Virus record (IMG/VR): IMGVR_UViG_3300003323_000567 | Location: 62,035-126,034 of that record | From: a virus | Reading direction: 5' to 3' (one strand) | Length of the DNA: 64,000 nt | Program-made: the position numbers and the translations under genes | The notes under the pieces: model-generated | What the model was told of the DNA's origin: nothing | The model's database searches: none | Seen by the model: only the letters and a program-made list of their open reading frames with translations | Shown: piece by piece, positions 4,080 through 24,737 of the stretch | Layout of the letters: every line of letters begins with the position of its first letter | How positions within the stretch are numbered: position 1 is the stretch's first letter

Positions 4080-4464
4080 GGTTCAAAGATTTTTTCAGCT
4101 CTAAAATCACTTTGCTCAACTCATAAGAAAACTTGTCCTGAAATTCCATAACATCTATTTCGAGCAAAGCTCCTTCCAGACCATCCAAAATCTGGTTTCT
4201 GAAGGTGGGAGTATAAGCTTGCCTCTCTTTAACGAAAGATAGACTTGCAATAAATCCCTTAGGGGTGAAAGACATAATAATGTGATCAGGCTTAATTGCT
4301 ACCCTGAGGTCTGTTGAGTCATATCCATCTCTAAGCCTGGTTATCAGCTTATTGTAGAATATACCTCTCAGCTCACTGGGAGCTATGGGTGCATTCACTT
4401 GTCTAACCACCCAATCACTGTAATCTATCAGGGCCCCGCTCAAAATAGTTGTGTGGTCAATCAT
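4051..4464 (-). CDS. hypothetical protein
   Basis: 137 aa ORF in gene run. Confidence 0.6.
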   Translation of the reverse strand: MIDHTTILSGALIDYSDWVVRQVNAPIAPSELRGIFYNKLITRLRDGYDSTDLRVAIKPDHIIMSFTPKGFIASLSFVKERQAYTPTFRNQILDGLEGALLEIDVMEFQDKFSYELSKVILELKKSLNHGGKQISKY

Positions 4465-4465
4465 T

Positions 4466-4681
4466 TTACATGTTTTTGAATGAGGTTACCCACGACGTTA
4501 CATAGCCATGGTACTTATGTAAGAAGTCAATTTTACCCCTCGATTTGATACCCACATCTCCTTTGGCCAATGACCCAAAGAGCATGTAGACAATCTTTCT
4601 GTCCCGAGGGATCAGGAGATCTGACTTCTGGTTCAGCTGGTTTACAACTGTTTCCTCCTGGTAGTTTCGCTTTTTTGCCAT
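4466..4681 (-). CDS. hypothetical protein
   Basis: 71 aa ORF abutting the next gene. Confidence 0.6.
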   Translation of the reverse strand: MAKKRNYQEETVVNQLNQKSDLLIPRDRKIVYMLFGSLAKGDVGIKSRGKIDFLHKYHGYVTSWVTSFKNM

Positions 4682-4827
4682 ATATCTTTAGCTCTAAACC
4701 TTAGCTTCAGAGCGTATCTTATCTCCCAGTATCTTTAACACCCTCTCATACCTCCATCTTTGCCAGTGCCAAGCGCAAAACATACCAGCACAGAAGGAGA
4801 GTCCTGAAAATAACCAGACAAGTGTTG

Positions 4828-5046
4828 TCATGATTGTTTGTTTTGGTCTTCTTTGACTTTTTCAATGTCAACCCACTTATTAGCAACAGCTATTCCAGTG
4901 AGTATTATGCCACCTACTATGCCCAATATAAGACCGAAGAAAAATCCACCCATAAGAAAAGTTTTTAATGTTAAGAAAAGATGTTCCCTGTCTGCCTTCC
5001 AGGGGCAGAGATAGTCCCAGTCAGCTATCACTGGGCGACTGTACAT
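4828..5046 (-). CDS. small membrane protein (true start probably internal, MGGFFF)
   Basis: Single long Gly-rich transmembrane segment. Confidence 0.5.
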   Translation of the reverse strand: MYSRPVIADWDYLCPWKADREHLFLTLKTFLMGGFFFGLILGIVGGIILTGIAVANKWVDIEKVKEDQNKQS

Positions 5047-5186
5047 TTGCTACCCTCCTTTCAGGAATGTCTCTGGAAAAGATATGAACTCCGTTGCAAG
5101 TGTGGATCTGCCTTCATTTCCCTCAGGGAGCAGGGAACAATAATGAGAGTAGTTAGCCCTCACTATTCCTAAACATGGAAGGATCT

Positions 5187-5837
5187 TTAATCATTTATAG
5201 CTGCCAGGAGCTTCTCAGTGATGGTTTCAGCACCCTCAAGCTTCTTGGTATCCACAATATCAAACTTGGCATTCATTTTAGGAACCAGTTCATCGTCCAA
5301 TTCCTGGAGGAATGCTGCTGCACTTGAGTCATTTCCTACCTGAAGGAAGGTAATGGCAATTTCTCCATCAGCATCTATGCTGTTGGCAGCCTTTACAAGA
5401 ACATTTTTGGTGGCCTTTCTGTCACTTGGCTCACCATCGGTTATAATAGCCAGAAGTACAGGTTTGGGATTTTTACCGGCAGCCTTGTCTGTCAAATATT
5501 TATCCACTACTTTGCTGATCATTTGATCTGTGGGTGTTCCACCATCGGGTTCATTTTCTGTGAAGATCTGATTGAGCAGTTCGTCAGTACCTGTGACGTT
5601 GTTGTACATCTTGACCATAGATCCTCCAAAGATACCTATGTCTATGCCATCAGTATCAATGGTGGCTGCCTTTCTGGCCAATGAGCCAGCTGCTTCTTTA
5701 GCAAAATCCCAGCGGGACTTTCCTCCTGTGGTGTCATCTTTAGTTCCCATTGAACCAGATCTGTCAATTGCTACTGTAATGTCATACTTTGCGAGGTCTG
5801 CCACTGTGGCTTGTGTTGTTTCCATGTTTTTGTTCAT
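5187..5837 (-). CDS. von Willebrand factor A (vWA) domain protein
   Basis: MIDAS DRSGS, GGTPT, IITDGEP, FLQVG, FLQELDD...FDIVDT. Confidence 0.9.
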   Translation of the reverse strand: MNKNMETTQATVADLAKYDITVAIDRSGSMGTKDDTTGGKSRWDFAKEAAGSLARKAATIDTDGIDIGIFGGSMVKMYNNVTGTDELLNQIFTENEPDGGTPTDQMISKVVDKYLTDKAAGKNPKPVLLAIITDGEPSDRKATKNVLVKAANSIDADGEIAITFLQVGNDSSAAAFLQELDDELVPKMNAKFDIVDTKKLEGAETITEKLLAAIND

Positions 5838-5857
5838 GTTTTATTGTTAATAATAGA

Positions 5858-6076
5858 CTATCCTTCCTTTTGATTCAGGGTTGCATCACTAACACCATCA
5901 CAGTTGTCCCCTTGGGCAGTGTGTGGGGCGAGGTGCCAAGTAGCAAGTATTCCAGCATAAATAGCTGGGTCCATTTTGCCACAAGAAAAGCCCCCTGGTC
6001 CTACTGTAAGGAATTTGCAGCATTGTGCTCCTTGGCCAATTTTACATATTTCTTGGAGCCAGTTTTCTATTTGCAT
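5858..6076 (-). CDS. small Cys-containing hypothetical protein
   Basis: CKIGQGAQCCKFL...FSCGK...GDNCDG. Confidence 0.6.
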   Translation of the reverse strand: MQIENWLQEICKIGQGAQCCKFLTVGPGGFSCGKMDPAIYAGILATWHLAPHTAQGDNCDGVSDATLNQKEG

Positions 6077-6077
6077 A

Positions 6078-6302
6078 TTATTTTAGGTTTGGTTCTTCTT
6101 CAGTTATTTCCCACTCAAGAGCTTCTTTCAGATCCTCTACGAATATTGGAAATATCAGACTTACTTCCCCCTCCTGAAAGTTCCCATTGGATAACCATAC
6201 ACCCTTGGGCCATTGAGATACCCAGTATCCAATTTGACCATCAGGGGTTTTGACTTTTATTCCTCCCAGATTGGTGCTAGGTGGCAATGCTTTTAGCTTC
6301 AT
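6078..6302 (-). CDS. hypothetical protein
   Basis: 74 aa ORF, Trp-rich. Confidence 0.6.
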   Translation of the reverse strand: MKLKALPPSTNLGGIKVKTPDGQIGYWVSQWPKGVWLSNGNFQEGEVSLIFPIFVEDLKEALEWEITEEEPNLK

Positions 6303-6389
6303 ATTGATTTACCTCCTTTTTTAAAAGAGAACAGGGATTTCTCCCTGTCTCGTGTTGTGTCAGTGTTTGGGGTAATGGACACAGTGTAA

Positions 6390-6638
6390 CTATTTGTCAA
6401 ATTTCTTGTGCATTTCAAAATCCATGCTGTCCAGGGAATAATTAACTGAATGGAGTTCGCCATTGGGCCCTAAAAAGACAAGATAAGTCATCTCCCCTCT
6501 ACGTTGTTCCACAGTTTGTATAGGAGGAAACTTACTAAGATATTTGGACTTTGCCCTGTCATAGACAAAAGTGCTCCACAGGTTACAGAAGATTACTACA
6601 GTGGCCATTACGATGAATACAATATTAAATGTTCTCAT
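6390..6638 (-). CDS. N-terminally anchored membrane protein
   Basis: N-terminal hydrophobic segment. Confidence 0.55.
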   Translation of the reverse strand: MRTFNIVFIVMATVVIFCNLWSTFVYDRAKSKYLSKFPPIQTVEQRRGEMTYLVFLGPNGELHSVNYSLDSMDFEMHKKFDK

Positions 6639-6976
6639 ATGTTTCTTTATATTTCACTAGTTAAAAGAGGAGTGTGGAAACACCCCTCATGCTTGGTTAT
6701 GGCTTTCGCCTGTTACAAGAAAGACCTCAATGTTTTGGCTCCAATACTTTGAATGTTTGGATGTGGCTTTACACGAAGGAAGGAAGCACCCAAAGATTCT
6801 CCTTCTCCCGGAATTCTTCAGGTACTAAGCTTCACTTCGTGTCATCAGCTCTGCCGATGTCTACTGTATAAAACTTTCCATGTACACGCTGCTGCGGAAA
6901 GCAAGTTTGTTCAGGTTAGTCAGTATCCAGTAGTTTCTGATAGTGCTACTAATCAGAAATGCTTTGATCATAGTGA

Positions 6977-7384
6977 TTACTCGGGAATTTTGACAGTAAT
7001 TATCACATTATTATTGTCAAATCTTACCCCCTCAATTGGGAATGCAAGTTCAAGCTTTTTTGGAGATCTGGGTAACATCTCTGCCATTGTCCTTAGATTA
7101 TCCCTTGTTTCTCTATCAGTCTGTGATTCATTTTCCCTACTTGCCCTTGGGCTGTCTATATTATTAGCCTTTCTTTTACGATTGGCCATAATGTAGGCAT
7201 CTACTTCTTCAGATAACCTGTTATTTTCAGCTATGAATTCATCCTTCATTTTTCTCCTTCCCCAATGGGGCTTTTCAAGGATCATTTGCAACTGTGTCAG
7301 TTCCTTGGCATTGAAGGGTTTCATCTCAATCGAGATGCCCTTGACTTTTCTTGAAACCTTTTTCTTGGTTTGGCCTTTTGACAT
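6977..7384 (-). CDS. basic hypothetical protein
   Basis: 135 aa ORF. Confidence 0.6.
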   Translation of the reverse strand: MSKGQTKKKVSRKVKGISIEMKPFNAKELTQLQMILEKPHWGRRKMKDEFIAENNRLSEEVDAYIMANRKRKANNIDSPRASRENESQTDRETRDNLRTMAEMLPRSPKKLELAFPIEGVRFDNNNVIITVKIPE

Positions 7385-7420
7385 TTTGTATGTGTTTGAT
7401 TAATAAGCAATTGATGAAAA

Positions 7421-7580
7421 GGGAGTAGGCACCTTATCCATTAGGATATCGTAGGCTTGTGGACTCAAGACCAAACCGCCGTCCACTCAAGCTCAATGTG
7501 TTCAGAATCACAGGGCCACATTCCCCTGCTTCCTTAGACACCAAGCGGACAAGCCCGATTATCTTGTCTGCCATACTCCC
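7421..7580 (-). ncRNA. putative rod-shaped structured RNA
   Basis: GC-rich intergenic stretch with nested inverted repeats (gggagtaggca/tgccatactccc; ggcttgt/acaagcc; aatgtg/cacatt), followed by a U-tract on the minus strand. Confidence 0.35.
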
Positions 7581-7783
7581 CCAGAGGGTTTCCACAGAGT
7601 GGAGAAACTTTGTTTCCCAATACCCGGATTTCTTCTTCCAACAATAAAACGTGCAGACAGATTTTAATGTGCCATACTACAGGTCTTTGCAATCATAACA
7701 ATAGCCAATATGGTTCCTACGATCCCCCAGAATGCGGGTTCTCGTGATTCTCTTTTCTTTTTTATATGTTTCATAAGGATTAG

Positions 7784-8626
7784 TTATGGGTATGGTTCCT
7801 TCTTTATCCATGAATGTCCGAAGGGATGTTTGATTCTATGCCAGGCTTTTCTGAAGAACCCCTTGGGGTAGGTAGTAAGGACTCTACAGCAGTCGTACAT
7901 TTGTATAGCATAGGGATCCTTTTCAGCCCCAATGTTTAGTTCAAAGTTTACTGTAATAGGTGGAGTAATTATGTAATGACCTAGTGCCTGAAATGTGATC
8001 TGACCTCTAACAGTCCCAGAACTATCAATAGGCATTCTGAATAGCTGCATGAATGTCACATTACTTCTATACTGTGGTATAGGACAGGAAGGAGGTTGTA
8101 ACCCCTCAGTTTCCTCATTATTTGCATATGCCAGATACTCCAGAACTACCATTTTTTCTACTGGTTTCATCACTGAAGATCTTTCGAATGTAACAATGGG
8201 AGAAAACGGGCACACATCCTGCATATTAGGTCCATATATCCACCATCCCCTGGTCACACTTGCTCTGAGTTGAAACTCAAAATGTGCTGCGTCTACTCTC
8301 ACAGCTTTCCAATCCCATATTACAGGGTTGACTTGAGCTTGACCCAGTAGAGGAATCAGTGCTACGAGAGCCACTAATACCCTTCCTTTAAAGGATCTTC
8401 CTTTGAATTTGTCTTCCCTTGGGGATTTTTGAAACTCACTTTCAGGGCCAAAAAGTGCTGAGAAGTCCTGTTCATCGAAGGTTCCAATACATTTGCGACT
8501 ATAGAAATTAAATACTTCCCATTGTCCATTTGATTGCTGCACAAAGACTTTGTCTCCCCGTGCAGTCAATATTCTCCGCCCATCAGGGTCAGTAGAAATA
8601 AAATCACTTTTAGCTCTGTAACGCAT
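7784..8626 (-). CDS. protein with DsbD N-terminal-like domain
   Basis: Internal signal-like segment VLVALVALIPLLGQAQ, then VIWDWKA...FQLRASVTRGWWIYG...Y...VTF.Q...VRGQITFQA, resembling Bacteroidota DsbD-N domains. Confidence 0.55.
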   Translation of the reverse strand: MRYRAKSDFISTDPDGRRILTARGDKVFVQQSNGQWEVFNFYSRKCIGTFDEQDFSALFGPESEFQKSPREDKFKGRSFKGRVLVALVALIPLLGQAQVNPVIWDWKAVRVDAAHFEFQLRASVTRGWWIYGPNMQDVCPFSPIVTFERSSVMKPVEKMVVLEYLAYANNEETEGLQPPSCPIPQYRSNVTFMQLFRMPIDSSGTVRGQITFQALGHYIITPPITVNFELNIGAEKDPYAIQMYDCCRVLTTYPKGFFRKAWHRIKHPFGHSWIKKEPYP

Positions 8627-20075: not shown

Positions 20076-20480
20076 ATGAGTAAATTCACAGATGACTTTT
20101 TTGCCTTTCCTATTAAGGTGTATGATGGCTTCTCTCTGAAGAAGGCCATGGATGAAGAGGATAAGGTAGGGACTGAAGCTCCTGTGCCAATTGACTGGGT
20201 AGCTGGATGGGTGAGGATACCTGTAAAGGATTTACCTAAGATGATGTGGCATGAGGGCTTTTCCAGGGAGAGAAGTGTAAAGGATGTGGCTGAGGAAGGC
20301 TTTGATCTGACTATTGTTATTACTGATAGTTATGGAGAGTTTGTGAGTACATGGCCAAGGAAGAAGTTCGAAGCTAAGCTGGATGACTTCATGGCTAAGT
20401 ATCAGACCAGGGCAAAGGACTATCTATCAAGCCCGAACCCCCATATTCTCGTTCAATCTATATCCCCTGAGGGACAATAG
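20076..20480 (+). CDS. hypothetical protein
   Basis: Start MSKFTDD chosen downstream of the promoter (ORF track 20004..20480). Confidence 0.65.
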   Translation: MSKFTDDFFAFPIKVYDGFSLKKAMDEEDKVGTEAPVPIDWVAGWVRIPVKDLPKMMWHEGFSRERSVKDVAEEGFDLTIVITDSYGEFVSTWPRKKFEAKLDDFMAKYQTRAKDYLSSPNPHILVQSISPEGQ

Positions 20481-20490
20481 AGAAAATAAA

Positions 20491-20522
20491 TTTGGAGAAT
20501 TGAAATCTTGGATCTATATTTG
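20491..20522 (+). promoter_or_regulatory. promoter of tRNA operon 1
   Basis: TTTG(20491)-20 nt-TATATTTG(20515). Confidence 0.85.
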
Positions 20523-20549
20523 CAGGATAAAATCTAAACAAAGAAGAAA

Positions 20550-20630
20550 ATGTACTATTCAATAGTGGATAATGGGATCATGAGAGGCGCAGAGAAATCT
20601 GCTCCAGGGGTCTCTTTGTCTACTATGTAA
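20550..20630 (+). CDS. attenuator leader peptide 1 (MYYSIVDNGIMRGAEKSAPGVSLSTM)
   Basis: 26 aa uORF between promoter and terminator; codons 5-16 match the tRNAs of operon 1. Confidence 0.8.
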   Translation: MYYSIVDNGIMRGAEKSAPGVSLSTM

Positions 20631-20652
20631 TTGATAAACAAGTAGTTAACCA

Positions 20653-20695
20653 AGATCCCTGGAGCACCAAAGAGCTCTGGGGATTTTTGCTTTAT
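20653..20695 (+). terminator. intrinsic terminator/attenuator 1
   Basis: atccctggagc-loop-gctctggggat plus T-tract; 5' arm also complementary to 20600-20613. Confidence 0.85.
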
Positions 20696-20766
20696 GCCCT
20701 CATAGCTTAATGGTAGAGCTCGAACCTTTTAAGTTTGAGATCCAAGTTCGATCCTTGGTGGGGGTA
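20696..20766 (+). tRNA. tRNA-Lys(TTT)
   Basis: Cloverleaf GCCCTCA/TGGGGGT; loop CTTTTAA. Confidence 0.85.
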
Positions 20767-20775
20767 CAGAAATAT

Positions 20776-20846
20776 TCCCTTGTAGCTCTAAGGTAGAGTA
20801 GATGACTCTTAATCATCGGGCGAAGGTTCGATTCCTTCCAGGGGAA
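20776..20846 (+). tRNA. tRNA-Lys(CTT)
   Basis: TCCCTTG/CAGGGGA; GATGA-CTCTTAA-TCATC. Confidence 0.9.
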
Positions 20847-20847
20847 C

Positions 20848-21024
20848 ATGGCAACTAAAGATAAGAAAATCAGGAAGCTGAAGGACAGGATAGAGAAGAT
20901 GGAAGCAGATATGTATAAAGAGTTGAGACAAAAGACATCTTCAACTGCAGAGATCAGCGTACATAAGTATCAAGCCAGATTGGCTCAAATGCATCTGGAG
21001 CTTCGGGAACTCGAAAAGAAATAG
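20848..21024 (+). CDS. 58 aa coiled-coil protein inside tRNA operon 1
   Basis: MATKDKKIRKLKDRIEKMEADMYKELRQKTSSTAEISVHKYQARLAQMHLELRELEKK (manual translation). Confidence 0.6.
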   Translation: MATKDKKIRKLKDRIEKMEADMYKELRQKTSSTAEISVHKYQARLAQMHLELRELEKK

Positions 21025-21025
21025 T

Positions 21026-21232
21026 ATGAAGATTACGTTTCAAGAGATGGCTCTAAGGGGTAAAGAGATCTTGTCTAGGCAGGGGCCTGTTACATTAGAG
21101 CAGGCTAGGGAGCAAGTAGAAAGACTTAAGAAGAATTCAAAATGCTCCATAGCACAGGGGTTGAGTGCATCTGCCTTACAAGCAGTCGACCTTGGTTCGA
21201 GTCCAAGTGGAGCAACCCAAAAGGAGTTATAG
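21026..21232 (+). CDS. small protein whose frame runs through tRNA-Val
   Basis: ATG directly after the previous stop; first ~39 codons look like protein, the rest overlap the tRNA. Confidence 0.4.
   Translation: MKITFQEMALRGKEILSRQGPVTLEQAREQVERLKKNSKCSIAQGLSASALQAVDLGSSPSGATQKEL
21143..21215 (+). tRNA. tRNA-Val(TAC)
   Basis: TGCTCCA/TGGAGCA; loop CTTACAA. Confidence 0.85.
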
Positions 21233-21294
21233 CTCAATGAATAGAGCCTCTGCCTTCTAAGCAGATTATCAAGGTTTGATTCCTTGTAACTCCT
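21223..21294 (+). tRNA. tRNA-Arg(TCT)
   Basis: GGAGTTA/TAACTCC; TCTGC-CTTCTAA-GCAGA. Confidence 0.9.
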
Positions 21295-21384
21295 CAGGTC
21301 TGTTTCCAGCTTCAGCGTGGAGTACAAAAGTTGGGGTTTTCAACTGCAGTGTATTACTTTCCATAAAGTGATCTCCTGCAGCCA

Positions 21385-21456
21385 GGACAGTTAGCTCAGA
21401 GGAAGAGCAAAGAGCTGTTAACTCTTAGGCCGGGATTTCGAAATTCCCACTGTCCT
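21385..21456 (+). tRNA. tRNA-Asn(GTT)
   Basis: GGACAGT/ACTGTCC; AAGAG-CTGTTAA-CTCTT. Confidence 0.9.
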
Positions 21457-21457
21457 C

Positions 21458-21745
21458 ATGAAAGAATATCTGTTGAGTATAGGTTTTGAACAGAAGTTAC
21501 CTTGGCAGTTTCACACTGATTCTTACATGGTAACTGAACTTGAAGAAGATTCCAACTCCATACCCCTCTGGAGCATCACAAATAAGAGGTATGATGAAAA
21601 AGTTTTCAGAGGAAGAATAAGGAGTGTTGAAGAGTTTAAGCAGATCTTTATGCTTGTGAAAGAGGATTATGACTTGACACAGGATGAAATAAGTTGGGCA
21701 ACAGCTATAAGAGGTAATGAAGAATTAAATAAGATTGCGGGGTAG
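21458..21745 (+). CDS. hypothetical protein inside tRNA operon 1
   Basis: 95 aa ORF filling the gap between tRNA-Asn and tRNA-Met. Confidence 0.65.
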   Translation: MKEYLLSIGFEQKLPWQFHTDSYMVTELEEDSNSIPLWSITNKRYDEKVFRGRIRSVEEFKQIFMLVKEDYDLTQDEISWATAIRGNEELNKIAG

Positions 21746-21809
21746 ACTGGAGAGGTGCCAGCTCAGTCTCATAAGCTGAATGACATGGGTTCGATTCCCA
21801 TCCCCGCAA
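21736..21809 (+). tRNA. tRNA-Met(CAT)
   Basis: TGCGGGG/CCCCGCA; TCAGT-CTCATAA-GCTGA. Confidence 0.8.
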
Positions 21810-21877
21810 CTAATCAGGTCTCCCACCCTGGTCCAGAGGGAGAGCAATGGGGCACTTGGGGACTGCCTACCTGATAT

Positions 21878-21948
21878 GCATCACAAGCATTGTGACGATG
21901 CTCCATCCTTCCAAGTTGGAGAGCAGGGTTTGATTCCCTGGTGGTGCT
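21878..21948 (+). tRNA. tRNA-Gly(TCC)
   Basis: GCATCAC/GTGGTGC; loop CTTCCAA; U73. Confidence 0.8.
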
Positions 21949-21949
21949 C

Positions 21950-22177
21950 ATGGATAAGAATGAAGTAAAGAAGAGATTATATAAGGAAAACCCAGGTGCA
22001 ATCTTACTGGAGGTAAGAGCAGATGGTATGTTATACCAAGCTCTCTTTAAAGGGGATGATGGGTTACCTGATATAAACCAAAAAGTAAAATTCCTTGTTC
22101 CCTTAGGGGAAATAGGAGAAGTAGTATGGAATAGGATAATGGATGCTAAATTATTAATAAGATGGTTACAAGATTAA
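21950..22177 (+). CDS. hypothetical protein inside tRNA operon 1
   Basis: MDKNEVKKRLYKENP...FLVPLGEIGE...MDAKLLIRWL. Confidence 0.65.
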   Translation: MDKNEVKKRLYKENPGAILLEVRADGMLYQALFKGDDGLPDINQKVKFLVPLGEIGEVVWNRIMDAKLLIRWLQD

Positions 22178-22195
22178 AAGAAGGTGAGGAGCTAT

Positions 22196-22268
22196 GCTCC
22201 CATCGTCTAATCGGTTAGGACGTTACTCTTTCAAGGTAAAAACGAGGGATCATAACCCTCTGGGAGTA
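22196..22268 (+). tRNA. tRNA-Glu(TTC)
   Basis: GCTCCCA/TGGGAGT; loop CTTTCAA; atypical T loop ATCATAA. Confidence 0.8.
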
Positions 22269-22366
22269 CAACATATTTAAGCTACATTGCGGACAAATGC
22301 TCTTAACTGAGCTGAGACCTGATAGGTTTCATACAGCAATTTGTCTGTCCGCCATGTGGCTAGTTC

Positions 22367-22436
22367 GAGGGTGTGGTGTAATGGTTGCATAACATCTTGT
22401 CACGGTGCAGGTTGGGGTTCGAGCCCCCCACTCTCG
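22367..22436 (+). tRNA. tRNA-Asp(GTC)
   Basis: GAGGGTG/CACTCTC; loop TTGTCAC; G73. Confidence 0.85.
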
Positions 22437-22444
22437 ACTTAAAT

Positions 22445-22520
22445 CGGCTCATAGTTTAAGAGGTCAAAACTCCCGACTCATAATCGGATGTTCCCAGATC
22501 ATGGCTGGGTGAGCCAACCA
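22445..22520 (+). tRNA. tRNA(CAT), probably Ile2 (lysidine type)
   Basis: CGGCTCA/TGAGCCA plus ACCA; anticodon arm CGA-CTCATAA-TCG as I recall for bacterial Ile2; ATA codon present in leader 1. The C1:A72 mismatch means an initiator identity cannot be excluded. Confidence 0.65.
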
Positions 22521-22602
22521 ATCTTGAGGGTGCATGTCCCTCAGGGACAACTAGAGGATAAAGTGGGGGAGGGTAAGAACCCCCTCTCCCCCTTTATCAA
22601 AT

Positions 22603-22674
22603 TGCCTGGTAACTCAGTGGTAGAGTGCCTCTCTGATACGGAGTGAGTGGATAGTTCGATTCTATCTCAGGCAA
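22603..22674 (+). tRNA. tRNA-Ile(GAT)
   Basis: TGCCTGG/TCAGGCA; loop CTGATAC. Confidence 0.85.
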
Positions 22675-22738
22675 CAGTAGGGACAGCTAAGTAACTGGAA
22701 GGGATGAAAGTTAGCCTTCGGGTTCTGTCCAAACACCA

Positions 22739-22812
22739 GGGGTTACATGTACCAAGGTTGGCGAGGGATCCTTGCAAGATCTCTGAGAAGAGTTCGATTC
22801 TCTTTAGCTCCA
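22739..22812 (+). tRNA. tRNA-Ala(TGC)
   Basis: GGGGTTA/TAGCTCC with G3:U70; loop CTTGCAA. Confidence 0.85.
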
Positions 22813-22820
22813 CAGATTTA

Positions 22821-22852
22821 TTTGGAAATCTCAAAAAGACTTCCTACATTTG
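22821..22852 (+). promoter_or_regulatory. promoter of tRNA operon 2
   Basis: TTTG(22821)-20 nt-TACATTTG(22845). Confidence 0.85.
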
Positions 22853-22859
22853 CAACATC

Positions 22860-22928
22860 ATGACAAAAGTATTATCATATTCCAGTCTATATCTCTTGAT
22901 CAAAGATCGAGCTGGGATGGTTATATAG
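22860..22928 (+). CDS. attenuator leader peptide 2 (MTKVLSYSSLYLLIKDRAGMVI)
   Basis: 22 aa uORF; codons 5-13 encode only Leu/Ser/Tyr, the amino acids of operon 2. Confidence 0.8.
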   Translation: MTKVLSYSSLYLLIKDRAGMVI

Positions 22929-22950
22929 TTTTTTTTGAAACCGTGGAGGT

Positions 22951-22986
22951 GCCCCAGCTTTTCTAGGCTGGGGTTTTTTGTTTTTA
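22951..22986 (+). terminator. intrinsic terminator/attenuator 2
   Basis: gccccagctt-ttct-aggctggggt plus T-tract; 5' arm complementary to 22909-22916. Confidence 0.85.
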
Positions 22987-22987
22987 T

Positions 22988-23060
22988 ACCTTGGTAGCCC
23001 AACGGAAGAGGCAGTAGTCTTAGGAACTACACAGTGTGGGTTCGAATCCCACCCTCGGTA
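22988..23060 (+). tRNA. tRNA-Leu(TAG), short variable arm
   Basis: GTAGT-CTTAGGA-ACTAC; T arm GTGGG-TTCGAAT-CCCAC; two acceptor mismatches. Confidence 0.75.
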
Positions 23061-23145
23061 CATGTTTATAATTTGTTTTGGAGAGTGTATGTGGCTAGTA
23101 GAGTTCAATGGACTGACTACTAATTGGTTATGCAGATTGGTATAA

Positions 23146-23220
23146 GTCCCTGTGATGTAATTAGGTAACCATACCAGACTTAAAATCTGGGTTTTGTAGG
23201 TTCAAGTCCTACCAGGGATA
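23146..23220 (+). tRNA. tRNA-Leu(TAA), short variable arm
   Basis: GTCCCTG/CAGGGAT; CCAGA-CTTAAAA-TCTGG. Confidence 0.85.
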
Positions 23221-23225
23221 CATAA

Positions 23226-23311
23226 GGAAGGTAGCACGGGATGCTCTGTAACTAGTCTTGAAAACTAGGCCAACGTGAAGAGCGTTGATGGTTGGACTCC
23301 ATTACCTTCCT
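23226..23311 (+). tRNA. tRNA-Ser(TGA)
   Basis: GGAAGGT/ACCTTCC; CTAGT-CTTGAAA-ACTAG; long variable arm CAACG/CGTTG. Confidence 0.8.
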
Positions 23312-23318
23312 CATATAA

Positions 23319-23402
23319 GGAGAGCAAACCTAAGAAGCCTTAGGAGCAGACTGCTAATCTGACTGTCCCTTAGGGGATGTGGATCGAGACCACTACTCTC
23401 CT
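23319..23402 (+). tRNA. tRNA-Ser(GCT)
   Basis: GGAGAG/CTCTCC; CAGA-CTGCTAA-TCTG; long variable arm. Confidence 0.8.
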
Positions 23403-23407
23403 CATAT

Positions 23408-23478
23408 TGAGTGGATGCCAGGGCAGCAGGCAATGTCTGTAAAACATAGGCACTAGGGTTCGAGTCCCTACCACTCAA
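23408..23478 (+). tRNA. tRNA-Tyr(GTA), short variable arm
   Basis: TGAGTGG/CCACTCA; ATGT-CTGTAAA-ACAT. Confidence 0.8.
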
Positions 23479-23484
23479 CTTTTA

Positions 23485-23516
23485 TTTGGTAGTCTCAAAT
23501 AACTACCATATATTTG
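23485..23516 (+). promoter_or_regulatory. promoter of tRNA operon 3
   Basis: TTTG(23485)-20 nt-TATATTTG(23509). Confidence 0.85.
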
Positions 23517-23520
23517 CATC

Positions 23521-23601
23521 ATGAATAAAGTATTTCGTCATACGTGGTTTACCTGTCAGCCTACTCAACCAGTGGGAAGGGGTGATGTCATGTATGATTA
23601 G
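23521..23601 (+). CDS. attenuator leader peptide 3 (MNKVFRHTWFTCQPTQPVGRGDVMYD)
   Basis: 26 aa uORF; codons 5-17 encode only F,R,H,T,W,C,Q,P, the amino acids of operon 3. Confidence 0.8.
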   Translation: MNKVFRHTWFTCQPTQPVGRGDVMYD

Positions 23602-23622
23602 AATATAAAGTTCTTGCATGCC

Positions 23623-23660
23623 AACCCCCTTTCTAACCAGATTGGGGGTTTTTCTTTTTA
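23623..23660 (+). terminator. intrinsic terminator/attenuator 3
   Basis: aaccccc...gggggtt plus T-tract; 5' arm complementary to 23573-23582. Confidence 0.8.
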
Positions 23661-23661
23661 T

Positions 23662-23733
23662 CTAGTTGTAGCCTAGAGGCCAGGCACTTGCTTTGGGAGC
23701 AAGATGACGCTAGTTCGATCCTAGCCAGCTAGA
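23662..23733 (+). tRNA. tRNA-Pro(TGG)
   Basis: CTAGTTG/CAGCTAG; CTTGC-TTTGGGA-GCAAG. Confidence 0.9.
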
Positions 23734-23738
23734 CATAC

Positions 23739-23812
23739 TCCAGATATGCTTTGATGGTGAAGCGCCTGTCTTGTAAACAGGAATAGAGAGTGTTCGAGTC
23801 ACTCATCTGGAT
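23739..23812 (+). tRNA. tRNA-Thr(TGT)
   Basis: TCCAGAT/ATCTGGA; CCTGT-CTTGTAA-ACAGG. Confidence 0.85.
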
Positions 23813-23817
23813 CATTT

Positions 23818-23890
23818 GGTGCTCAAGCAATTGTGGTCAATGCACCTGTCTGAAGAGCAGGCAAACTCAGTTCGATCCTGAGGGGTACCA
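23818..23890 (+). tRNA. tRNA-Phe(GAA)
   Basis: GGTGCTC/GGGTACC; CCTGT-CTGAAGA-GCAGG. Confidence 0.85.
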
Positions 23891-23897
23891 CTTATAA

Positions 23898-23969
23898 TGC
23901 CCTTTAGCACAATGGTAGTGCGTGAGTCTTTGGTCCTCATTATGTAAGGTTCGATTCCTACAGGGGCAT
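23898..23969 (+). tRNA. tRNA-Gln(TTG)
   Basis: TGCCCTT/AGGGGCA; loop CTTTGGT. Confidence 0.8.
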
Positions 23970-23971
23970 CT

Positions 23972-24044
23972 GTGGAGATACCAATTCGGTGAATGGGCTT
24001 GGCTGTGAACCAGGTAAGGCAGTTCGACTCTGCACTCCACCCCA
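23972..24044 (+). tRNA. tRNA-His(GTG)
   Basis: GTGGAG/CTCCAC, C73, CCA; CTTGG-CTGTGAA-CCAGG. Confidence 0.8.
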
Positions 24045-24115
24045 CTACCCTTCGTTCAAAGGAAGGACTTGAAGCTACGAACTTCAGGATATAGGTTCGA
24101 ATCCTATAGGGTAGT
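24045..24115 (+). tRNA. tRNA-Arg(ACG)
   Basis: CTACCCT/AGGGTAG; TGAAG-CTACGAA-CTTCA. Confidence 0.9.
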
Positions 24116-24118
24116 CAT

Positions 24119-24189
24119 ACATCTCTCAGGCCATGGGGGCCAAACAGTCTCCAAAACTGCAGGATAAGGTTCGATTCCTTAGAGGGGTG
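24119..24189 (+). tRNA. tRNA-Trp(CCA)
   Basis: CAGT-CTCCAAA-ACTG; T arm TAAGG-TTCGATT-CCTTA; 5' end uncertain by 2 nt. Confidence 0.8.
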
Positions 24190-24196
24190 CCGATAA

Positions 24197-24270
24197 GGCC
24201 AATTCGCCAAGTGGCAAGGCCGAGGCTTGCAAACCCTCTATCACCTGTTCGATTCAGGTATTGGCCTCCA
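24197..24270 (+). tRNA. tRNA-Cys(GCA)
   Basis: GGCCAAT/ATTGGCC, U73, CCA; loop TTGCAAA. Confidence 0.9.
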
Positions 24271-24305
24271 GGATCCTCTCTAATGAGAGGATTTTTGCTT
24301 TTTAT
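24271..24305 (+). terminator. terminator closing the tRNA array
   Basis: atcctctc-taat-gagaggat plus T-tract. Confidence 0.8.
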
Positions 24306-24377
24306 GGCATTAAGTCCCAGATACTTACATATTACTTCAAAAAAGGTCGTTAACTTTGTAAAAGAAAACCAAGCTAC

Positions 24378-24737
24378 ATGAAGGTAATTGTGCAGAAAAT
24401 ACGGAGAGAGGTAGCTTCTGACGTGGAAAAGGCAATAAGGTATTATTCTGTACTCCTTGCTCTGAATCAAGTTAAGCTTCCACAGAAGCAGCTATATCTA
24501 TTGGCATTCACTGCAGCCCGAGGGAGTATAACATCTCCTGCTGCAAGAAAGGAATTTGTAGAGATGTTTGATAGTTCCCTGGCATCTTTGGAGAACATGA
24601 AGCAAGAACTTGTTAAGTCTGGTTTTCTGGTCCAAACTGACATGAAGTATAGAGTTAATCCAAGCATTGCTCTGGATTTCTCAAAGGATATACAATTACA
24701 GATAAACCTAAAGGGAAGTGAAAAAGACCCAAGATAG
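24378..24737 (+). CDS. putative winged-HTH DNA-binding protein
   Basis: SLASLENMKQELVKSGFLVQ...YRVNP. Confidence 0.55.
   Translation: MKVIVQKIRREVASDVEKAIRYYSVLLALNQVKLPQKQLYLLAFTAARGSITSPAARKEFVEMFDSSLASLENMKQELVKSGFLVQTDMKYRVNPSIALDFSKDIQLQINLKGSEKDPR

Follow-up and report, generated by a model that had tools for sequence, protein, structure and literature searches.

Leader-peptide attenuation is a textbook device of amino-acid metabolism. The enterobacterial multivalent attenuators, such as the thr leader (Thr and Ile) and the ilvGMEDA leader (Ile, Val and Leu), typically carry long runs of codons for one to three amino acids, and in the pheST attenuator a Phe-rich leader precedes the genes of phenylalanyl-tRNA synthetase. 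T-box elements sense one uncharged tRNA through a specifier codon and the T-box motif, with no ribosome involved. Here we analyze a 64,000-nucleotide (nt) stretch of viral DNA (hereafter, the window), which is the right half of the 126-kb IMG/VR record IMGVR_UViG_3300003323_000567 (positions 62,035 to 126,034), and within it an element, denoted attenuator 3 or unit 3, that lies directly upstream of a block of eight tRNA genes. Judging by its sequence, unit 3 is likely to be a ribosome-mediated transcription attenuator of the leader-peptide (trp/thr) type, gating an operon of eight tRNA genes in a crAss-related phage of Bacteroidota.

Like the thr and ilvGMEDA attenuators, unit 3 combines a short leader open reading frame (ORF), regulatory codons for multiple amino acids, the 1:2, 2:3 and 3:4 helices, and a terminator located before the first gene. 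Unlike these attenuators, it would control tRNA genes and sample eight amino acids, mostly once or twice each, is probably leaderless, and is encoded by a virus. With pheST, it shares leader-peptide attenuation of a component of the translation apparatus rather than of biosynthesis; however, the pheST target is a synthetase protein gene and its leader monitors one amino acid, whereas the product of the phage unit is the tRNA itself, so that the feedback on decoding would be direct. As in T-boxes, the status of tRNA would be sensed and a choice made between terminator and antiterminator upstream of translation-related genes, but in the phage the codon run is part of a conserved ORF. Textbook attenuation appears here to have been turned on the tRNAs themselves, with a composite sensor that lists the entire repertoire of one block.

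Phage tRNA arrays are common, and the control of their expression is largely unknown. A full-text literature search, with supplements, subscription journals and about 1.7 million PMC articles outside its scope, turned up no description of tRNA genes under leader-peptide control and no paper about Leptolyngbya phage Lbo-JY46, one of the relatives discussed below; as far as searched, leader-peptide attenuation of tRNA genes is unreported. Leader-peptide attenuation as such has been reported in Flavobacterium (PMC9723704). The trn operon of Anabaena sp. PCC 7120 is described as a long supernumerary tRNA array, horizontally spread and normally silent, that is induced when translation is impaired, and induction of this tRNA L-array by translational stress is attributed to direct repeats arranged in tandem across its promoter and transcription start (PMC8421152). 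In contrast to the phage units, no codon-matched ORF figures in the main text of that paper, which contains neither "attenuat-" nor "leader peptide" nor "terminator" (PMC8421152).

The assignment of unit 3 is based on its anatomy, folding energetics, codon statistics and co-variation across 13 phages, from which we infer translation of the ORF, the transcription start site (TSS), ribosome stalling and regulated read-through. As far as can be told from the sequence, unit 3 contains all the elements of a leader-peptide attenuator: a short 5' ORF, matched codons, a terminator, an antiterminator and an anti-antiterminator (Table 1). Transcription would start at or beside the AUG of the 26-codon ORF, in which codons 5-17 would sample each amino acid served by the eight downstream tRNAs. 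Under fast decoding, the ribosome would reach the stop codon, the sensor would re-pair with a G-rich strand, the terminator would form, and RNA polymerase would stop about 11 nt ahead of tRNA-Pro, where the predicted terminator ends. At a slow codon, for which charged tRNA is scarce, the stalled ribosome would keep the sensor region open, and the freed G-rich strand would pair with the 5' arm of the terminator, allowing the polymerase to enter the tRNA genes. The expected outcome is negative feedback on decoding capacity, exerted block by block, with two sister units controlling the other two blocks.

Table 1. Predicted elements of unit 3, its sister units and the adjoining tRNA genes (window coordinates)
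Feature	Coordinates	Strand	Basis
Promoter of Bacteroidota sigma-A type: -33 TTTG, 20-nt spacer, -7 box TAnnTTTG; predicted TSS 23521	23485..23516	+	consensus scan
Leader ORF 3: 26 codons, ATG start, TAG stop (23599-23601)	23521..23601	+	ORF list
Sensor run: codons 5-17, only Phe, Arg, His, Thr, Trp, Cys, Gln and Pro, each at least once	23533..23571	+	codon reading against block-3 tRNAs
Long hairpin (anti-antiterminator, 1:2): 5' arm, sensor codons; 3' arm, 3' part of the ORF including the G-rich strand	23516..23621	+	folding
Putative antiterminator hairpin (2:3): G-rich 23573-23583 with terminator 5' arm 23625-23634, plus inner helix	23573..23635	+	folding
Putative intrinsic terminator (3:4): hairpin 23623-23650 and T-rich tail, just before tRNA-Pro	23623..23660	+	folding
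tRNA block 3: Pro(tgg), Thr(tgt), Phe(gaa), Gln(ttg), His(gtg), Arg(acg), Trp(cca), Cys(gca)	23662..24270	+	ARAGORN
Sister unit 1: promoter, 26-codon leader (20550-20630) with 12-codon run, 12-bp antiterminator, terminator	20491..20695	+	consensus, codon match, folding
Sister unit 2: promoter, 22-codon leader (22860-22928) with Leu/Ser/Tyr run, terminator	22821..22987	+	consensus, codon match, folding
Terminator closing the tRNA array	24270..24295	+	simple terminator scan

The amino acids encoded by the sensor run are exactly those of the eight block-3 tRNAs. These amino acids account for 29.2% of the residues in the long ORFs of the window, and the probability of encountering a run of at least 13 of them in 25 residues by chance is 1.05e-6. 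Among the 489 ATG-initiated ORFs of 15-60 amino acids in the window, leader ORF 3 ranks first, with its run of 13 compared to 8 for the next best. The initial annotation, made from the letters of the sequence, had placed the ATG of this ORF 4 nt after a short sequence element, had listed codons 5-17 as covering all eight tRNAs of the block and had deemed coincidence unlikely; the ORF and its spacing were recovered, the codon assignments agree with the tRNAs called by ARAGORN, and the statistics bear out the third point. By strict wobble rules, 10 of the 13 sensor codons are cognate to block-3 anticodons, and all 13 match by amino acid.

The same cassette, consisting of a promoter, an ORF of 22-26 codons and a terminator abutting the first tRNA gene, heads each of the three blocks of the array. 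Block 1, which follows unit 1, encodes tRNAs for Lys, Lys, Val, Arg(tct), Asn, Met, Gly, Glu, Asp, Met, Ile and Ala, and block 2, which follows unit 2, encodes Leu, Leu, Ser, a Ser(gct)-like gene and Tyr. Leaders 1, 2 and 3 contain uninterrupted stretches of up to 12, 9 and 13 residues, respectively, that match their own blocks, whereas stretches matching block 2 or block 3 in a non-corresponding leader span 1-3 codons. The match extends to the choice of Arg codons, with AGA in leader 1, which is followed by a block with Arg(tct), and CGT in leader 3, which is followed by a block with Arg(acg).

Altogether, 28 codon-matched leaders were identified in 13 distinct phage loci, namely, the window, L003 (= L082), L016 (= L105), L083, L086, L009, L056, L047, L035, L151, L181, L200 (PP438436.1, phage Lbo-JY46) and L201 (NC_021788.1, Cellulophaga phage phi4:1), with homologs of leader ORF 3 in 11 other phage loci. 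Across the 26 leaders with complete blocks (leader 1 of L151 and leader 1 of L181, the blocks of which are cut by the locus end, were excluded from the Fisher tables), the occurrence of an amino acid in codons 3-17 was strongly associated with the presence of the respective tRNA in the leader's own block (159/9/74/278; odds ratio 66, p = 7e-63). When the comparison was confined to 12 leader-3 homologs and the nine amino acids with variable block membership, the association held (72/0/11/25, p = 3e-16), and shuffling of the blocks among these homologs reached the observed match in 1e-4 of 20,000 trials.

Individual gains and losses follow the same pattern. Among the leader-3 homologs, no Arg codon is found in the run where the block has no tRNA-Arg (L056, L047 and L035) and no Trp codon where it has no tRNA-Trp (L047 and L035); conversely, Asp codons are present where the block gained tRNA-Asp (L056 and L047), and Asn codons where it gained tRNA-Asn (L056). 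The block of L035 comprises just Pro, Gln and His, and its leader has a six-codon run of those three only. In Lbo-JY46, tRNA-Cys resides in block 1, and Cys codons occur in leader 1, with none in leader 3. Arg is encoded by AGA in leaders preceding Arg(tct) and by CGT or CGC in 9 of the 10 leaders preceding Arg(acg), the tenth, in L083, being devoid of Arg codons; leader 1 of L056, the block of which holds both Arg tRNAs, contains one AGA and one CGC. Two apparent mismatches, Cys in L083 and Gln in L056, probably correspond to tRNAs that ARAGORN missed (these were read by eye, with no blastn support).

Phage phi4:1 splits its tRNAs among three blocks differently from the window phage: Pro, Glu, Gln, His, Leu, Leu and Arg(acg) follow unit A; Ala, Lys, Ile, Gly, Met, Asp, Thr, Val, Arg(tct) and Met follow unit B; and Tyr, Ser, Ser, Asn, Trp, Phe and a Cys-like gene follow unit C. 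In all, 11, 14 and 12 of the 15 residues at positions 3-17 of the respective leaders match the leader's own block, compared to 0-4 for the other blocks. The three units are located on the minus strand (L201 locus 4400-8400), in an array at about 87.2-90.9 kb of NC_021788.1; the annotation of unit B is that of a hypothetical protein, gp075, starting at a TTG farther upstream, and units A and C are unannotated. Two genes annotated in phi4:1 as tRNA-Pseudo resemble Asn(gtt) (by ARAGORN) and Cys(gca) (by eye), in agreement with the Asn and Cys codons of leader C.

In principle, the codon run could be read without a ribosome if uncharged tRNAs paired with it in a T-box-like manner, given that the run offers codons for each tRNA of the block. 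This possibility appears extremely slim. The run is always in frame, in an ORF that starts at a fixed distance from the promoter and stops before the terminator, and synonymous codon changes across the phages preserve the amino acid. Furthermore, a search of positions 20300-24500 of the window with Rfam models at E <= 1 detected only tRNAs and weak chance matches, with no match to a T-box or riboswitch model and none to the Trp, His, Thr and Leu leader families. To our knowledge, thirteen adjacent specifier codons have no precedent among T-boxes.

The minimum free energy (MFE) fold of positions 23515-23665 (-53 kcal/mol, z = -5.2, with none of 200 shuffles as good) pairs 23516-23565 with 23571-23621, followed by the hairpin 23623-23650 and its T-run. 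This is the single long hairpin described in the initial annotation, including both helices named there; folded without the terminator, the leader forms it at -31.4 kcal/mol (z = -3.2). The alternative pairing of the G-rich strand with the terminator arm, also proposed at the outset, was recovered at 23573-23583/23625-23634 (duplex energy -14.4 kcal/mol, p = 0.007 in 300 dinucleotide shuffles) along with an inner helix, and the complete antiterminator hairpin alone reaches -24.4 kcal/mol, compared to -14.9 kcal/mol for the terminator (-14.9 to -15.2 kcal/mol for hairpin 23623-23650).

We modeled ribosome occupancy by masking the sequence up to 14 nt beyond the A site. With no ribosome, the predicted state is the long hairpin followed by the terminator. 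With the A site of a stalled ribosome at codons 6-14, the predicted MFE fold is the antiterminator, even with the whole terminator present, and with the ribosome at the stop codon, which is 22 nt from the terminator in unit 3 and 22-37 nt in the homologs, the terminator becomes the predicted MFE fold again. These states bear on a scheme of positive control, under which any translation of the leader would open the long hairpin, stalling would play no part, and the codon match would tie expression of the tRNAs to tRNAs that are already there (feed-forward). Because the ribosome-free MFE fold includes both the long hairpin and the terminator, translation would indeed be needed for any read-through. 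However, a ribosome that has arrived at the stop codon restores the terminator in the model, and the placement of the antiterminator strand right after the sensor run, with the stop codon shortly before the terminator, is the layout of a stall-dependent attenuator. Accordingly, we regard such positive control as decidedly improbable.

The architecture of the putative attenuator recurs across the leaders. A G+C-rich hairpin with a T-run precedes the first tRNA gene in all 28 leaders, at a distance of about 10-14 nt in 27 of them, and the strand complementary to the 5' arm of the terminator sits just 3' of the sensor run, inside the ORF. When compared with dinucleotide shuffles, 20 of 25 leaders show significant complementarity between these strands (median z -3.1), as do two of the three phi4:1 units. 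The MFE fold contains the terminator in all 25 full leaders, and in 16 of these, the part upstream of the terminator folds with z < -2 into a hairpin with the sensor run as its 5' arm. The terminator sequences vary between phages, and the upstream antiterminator strand varies in step. Because the leaders are too diverged for gap-free alignment, this co-variation was assessed by comparing cognate and non-cognate pairs of arms (with the end of the sensor in leader 1 of Lbo-JY46 set by hand). Cognate arms pair with a mean energy of -14.9 kcal/mol, compared to -8.9 kcal/mol for non-cognate ones, and none of 100,000 permutations reached the observed mean. Ranked against all 25 arms, the cognate one comes first in 11 cases, including unit 3, and among the top three in 15.

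In view of these patterns, we consider it highly improbable that unit 3 is a chance ORF that happens to lie next to a constitutively acting terminator or to a structure for RNA processing located between two tRNA operons. The simple terminator scan, which listed the terminators of leader 1, leader 2 and the array end, omits the hairpin of unit 3, a point in favor of this alternative; the omission is explained by the 7-bp G+C stem of this hairpin, which encloses an internal loop and a small helix. Opposing coincidence are the probability of the codon run alone (about 1e-6) and the recurrence of the arrangement in 28 leaders, with codon content tracking the blocks and antiterminator strands tracking the terminators. 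The leader-peptide attenuator proposed in the initial annotation is thus supported: its parts are present, mutually consistent and kept in the relatives by compensating change.

The signal that such an attenuator would perceive is a separate question. The same mechanism could respond to amino-acid supply, that is, to tRNA charging rather than tRNA abundance, in which case the leader would signal starvation for these amino acids, like classical attenuators, and the extra transcription of tRNA genes would be incidental or meet some other need. Amino-acid operon attenuators have exactly the same anatomy, and a ribosome senses only the charged cognate tRNA, which makes charging and abundance inseparable from the sequence. 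We nevertheless find amino-acid supply an unlikely signal because the regulated genes are tRNAs, not biosynthetic genes, and because the leader content follows the tRNA genes of the block down to the Arg codon family, as expected of a sensor of decoding supply. Extending the decoding-supply reading, we tentatively suggest, as a conjecture that may well prove wrong, that the three units form a virus-encoded, codon-by-codon gauge of the host's decoding capacity, with each block switched on when the host tRNAs of that block run short during infection, the phage replacing exactly what is missing, and leader text and block partition co-evolving. Such a shortage could arise, for example, from host shut-off, from the codon demand of late genes or from defense nucleases that cleave tRNAs.

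If unit 3 and its sisters act as direct feedback on decoding capacity, this would explain the splitting of the arrays into blocks, yield a sequence rule predicting which codons a phage monitors, provide a natural reporter of codon-specific translation speed and establish a testable tie between phage tRNAs and host tRNA depletion. Cultured phages, phi4:1 (with its Cellulophaga host) and Lbo-JY46, carry the device, which makes it amenable to ordinary bench work.

Several observations weigh against the attenuator reading or limit it. A stall that results from starvation for an amino acid would not be relieved by additional tRNA, and the device cannot distinguish this cause from a shortage of tRNA. 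Three of the 13 sensor codons (ACC, CCT and ACT) require that the U34 tRNAs of the block decode whole four-codon boxes. In the model, a stall at codon 16 covers the G-rich strand and leaves little of the antiterminator, the last sensor codons being too near it; the original proposal is thus refined in that, in the model, only stalls at about codons 5-14 antiterminate. The complementarity of the antiterminator is no better than in shuffles in 5 of 25 leaders and in phi4:1 unit B. The leader of L047 contains Thr, Cys and Ile codons without such tRNAs in the block, and that of L035 matches over six codons only. The block-1 amino-acid set covers 57% of residues, so the runs of 9 and 7 block-1 residues in the tails of leaders 2 and 3 are uninformative. 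The p-values of the Fisher tests overstate the evidence because related leaders are not independent. Finally, no such leader was found in seven related tRNA-array loci (L022, L099, L100, L108, L115, L137 and L138), the arrays of which are interleaved with ORFs; the device is therefore optional.

The promoter consensus TTTG-N20-TAnnTTTG occurs five times in the window, compared to 1.1 expected (none of 100 shuffles reached five), and three of the five sites stand before the leader ORFs of units 1, 2 and 3. The sigma-A box TAnnTTTG of Flavobacterium psychrophilum is reported to span -12 to -5 (PMC9723704), and this consensus, together with the -33 TTTG, has been described for Bacteroides as well (PMC7366714). 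With the box at -12 to -5 and a 4-nt gap to the ATG of leader ORF 3, +1 falls on the A of the AUG. The mRNA of leader 3 is thus probably leaderless, as suggested in the initial annotation, with support coming from this geometry, that is, the 4-nt spacing and the position of the sigma-A box. Leaderless mRNAs are a minority in these bacteria, with reported fractions of 5.5% and about 3.7% (PMC9723704, PMC7366714). The distance from the box to the ATG is 4 nt in 10 of the 28 leaders, 2, 7 or 8 nt in five more, and 17-31 nt in eight, which are block-1 type leaders and phi4:1 unit B; in the remaining five, no recognizable promoter box was found. The promoter spacer of unit 3 carries, at 23487-23508, a 6-bp inverted (not direct) repeat that was flagged by the terminator scan, and several leaders in the relatives have an inverted repeat of different sequence at the same position of the spacer. 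This repeat might serve as an operator or might form a hairpin in RNA that is read through from the preceding block.

The terminase, portal and major head proteins of the window phage match crAss-related PHROG families. Its terminase is at most 35% identical to that of any GenBank phage, the nearest ones coming from Lbo-JY46, Cellulophaga phages and crAss-like phages. The tRNA array occupies positions 20696-24270 of the plus strand, where ARAGORN with default settings predicts 23 tRNAs. Ala(tgc), at 22739-22813, was missed under these settings and recovered at a relaxed threshold (88-90%; the spurious minus-strand calls added at this threshold were dropped). Inspection by eye identified a Ser(gct)-like class II tRNA at about 23313-23407, with an 82% blastn match in L003 and a counterpart in L009 that is called by ARAGORN. 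The presence of these two genes explains the GCA codon of leader 1 and the AGT codon of leader 2, respectively. The gap of 182 nt between tRNA-Tyr and tRNA-Pro is filled by the attenuator 3 stretch. The Rfam tRNA model matches seven of the eight block-3 tRNAs (Trp is not listed) and, at E <= 1, misses several tRNAs called by ARAGORN.

Relatives were collected by several searches. An alignment of TerL yielded 75 viral and 60 metagenome loci, mostly without tRNAs near TerL, compared to only 2 loci for TerL as a single-protein query. A 16-nt leader pattern matched 60 loci in viral contigs, among which the relevant ones were only L016, L151, L181 and L174 (which is the L003 contig), all others being chance matches; two more arrays came from this search. 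Megablast of the array against GenBank phages gave no match, the 158-amino-acid protein encoded upstream of the array retrieved no relatives, and a generic scan for a short ORF, a T-run and a codon match in all other tRNA-bearing loci revealed no further case.

Some of the relatives display peculiar arrangements. In L047 (3005-3305), the promoter drives tRNA-Met directly, and the leader ORF comes after this tRNA; the leader mRNA would either begin with a tRNA or be freed through tRNA processing. Lbo-JY46, for which a cyanobacterial host is recorded, has promoters of the Bacteroidota type (TTTG, 20 nt, TAnnTTTG-like) before its three leaders (L200, 1780-6800); either promoters of this type are functional in its host, or the recorded host merits re-examination.

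Within the array of the window, the inter-tRNA spacers of 60-95 nt at 21296-21384, 21811-21877, 22270-22365, 22521-22602, 22676-22738 and 23062-23145 have no tRNA call by ARAGORN or Rfam. Small protein-coding ORFs are interspersed among the block-1 tRNAs (20848-21024, 21026-21232, 21458-21745 and 21941-22177); some of these begin 1-2 nt after the end of a tRNA, one is kept in L003, and all would share regulation by attenuator 1 with the tRNAs.

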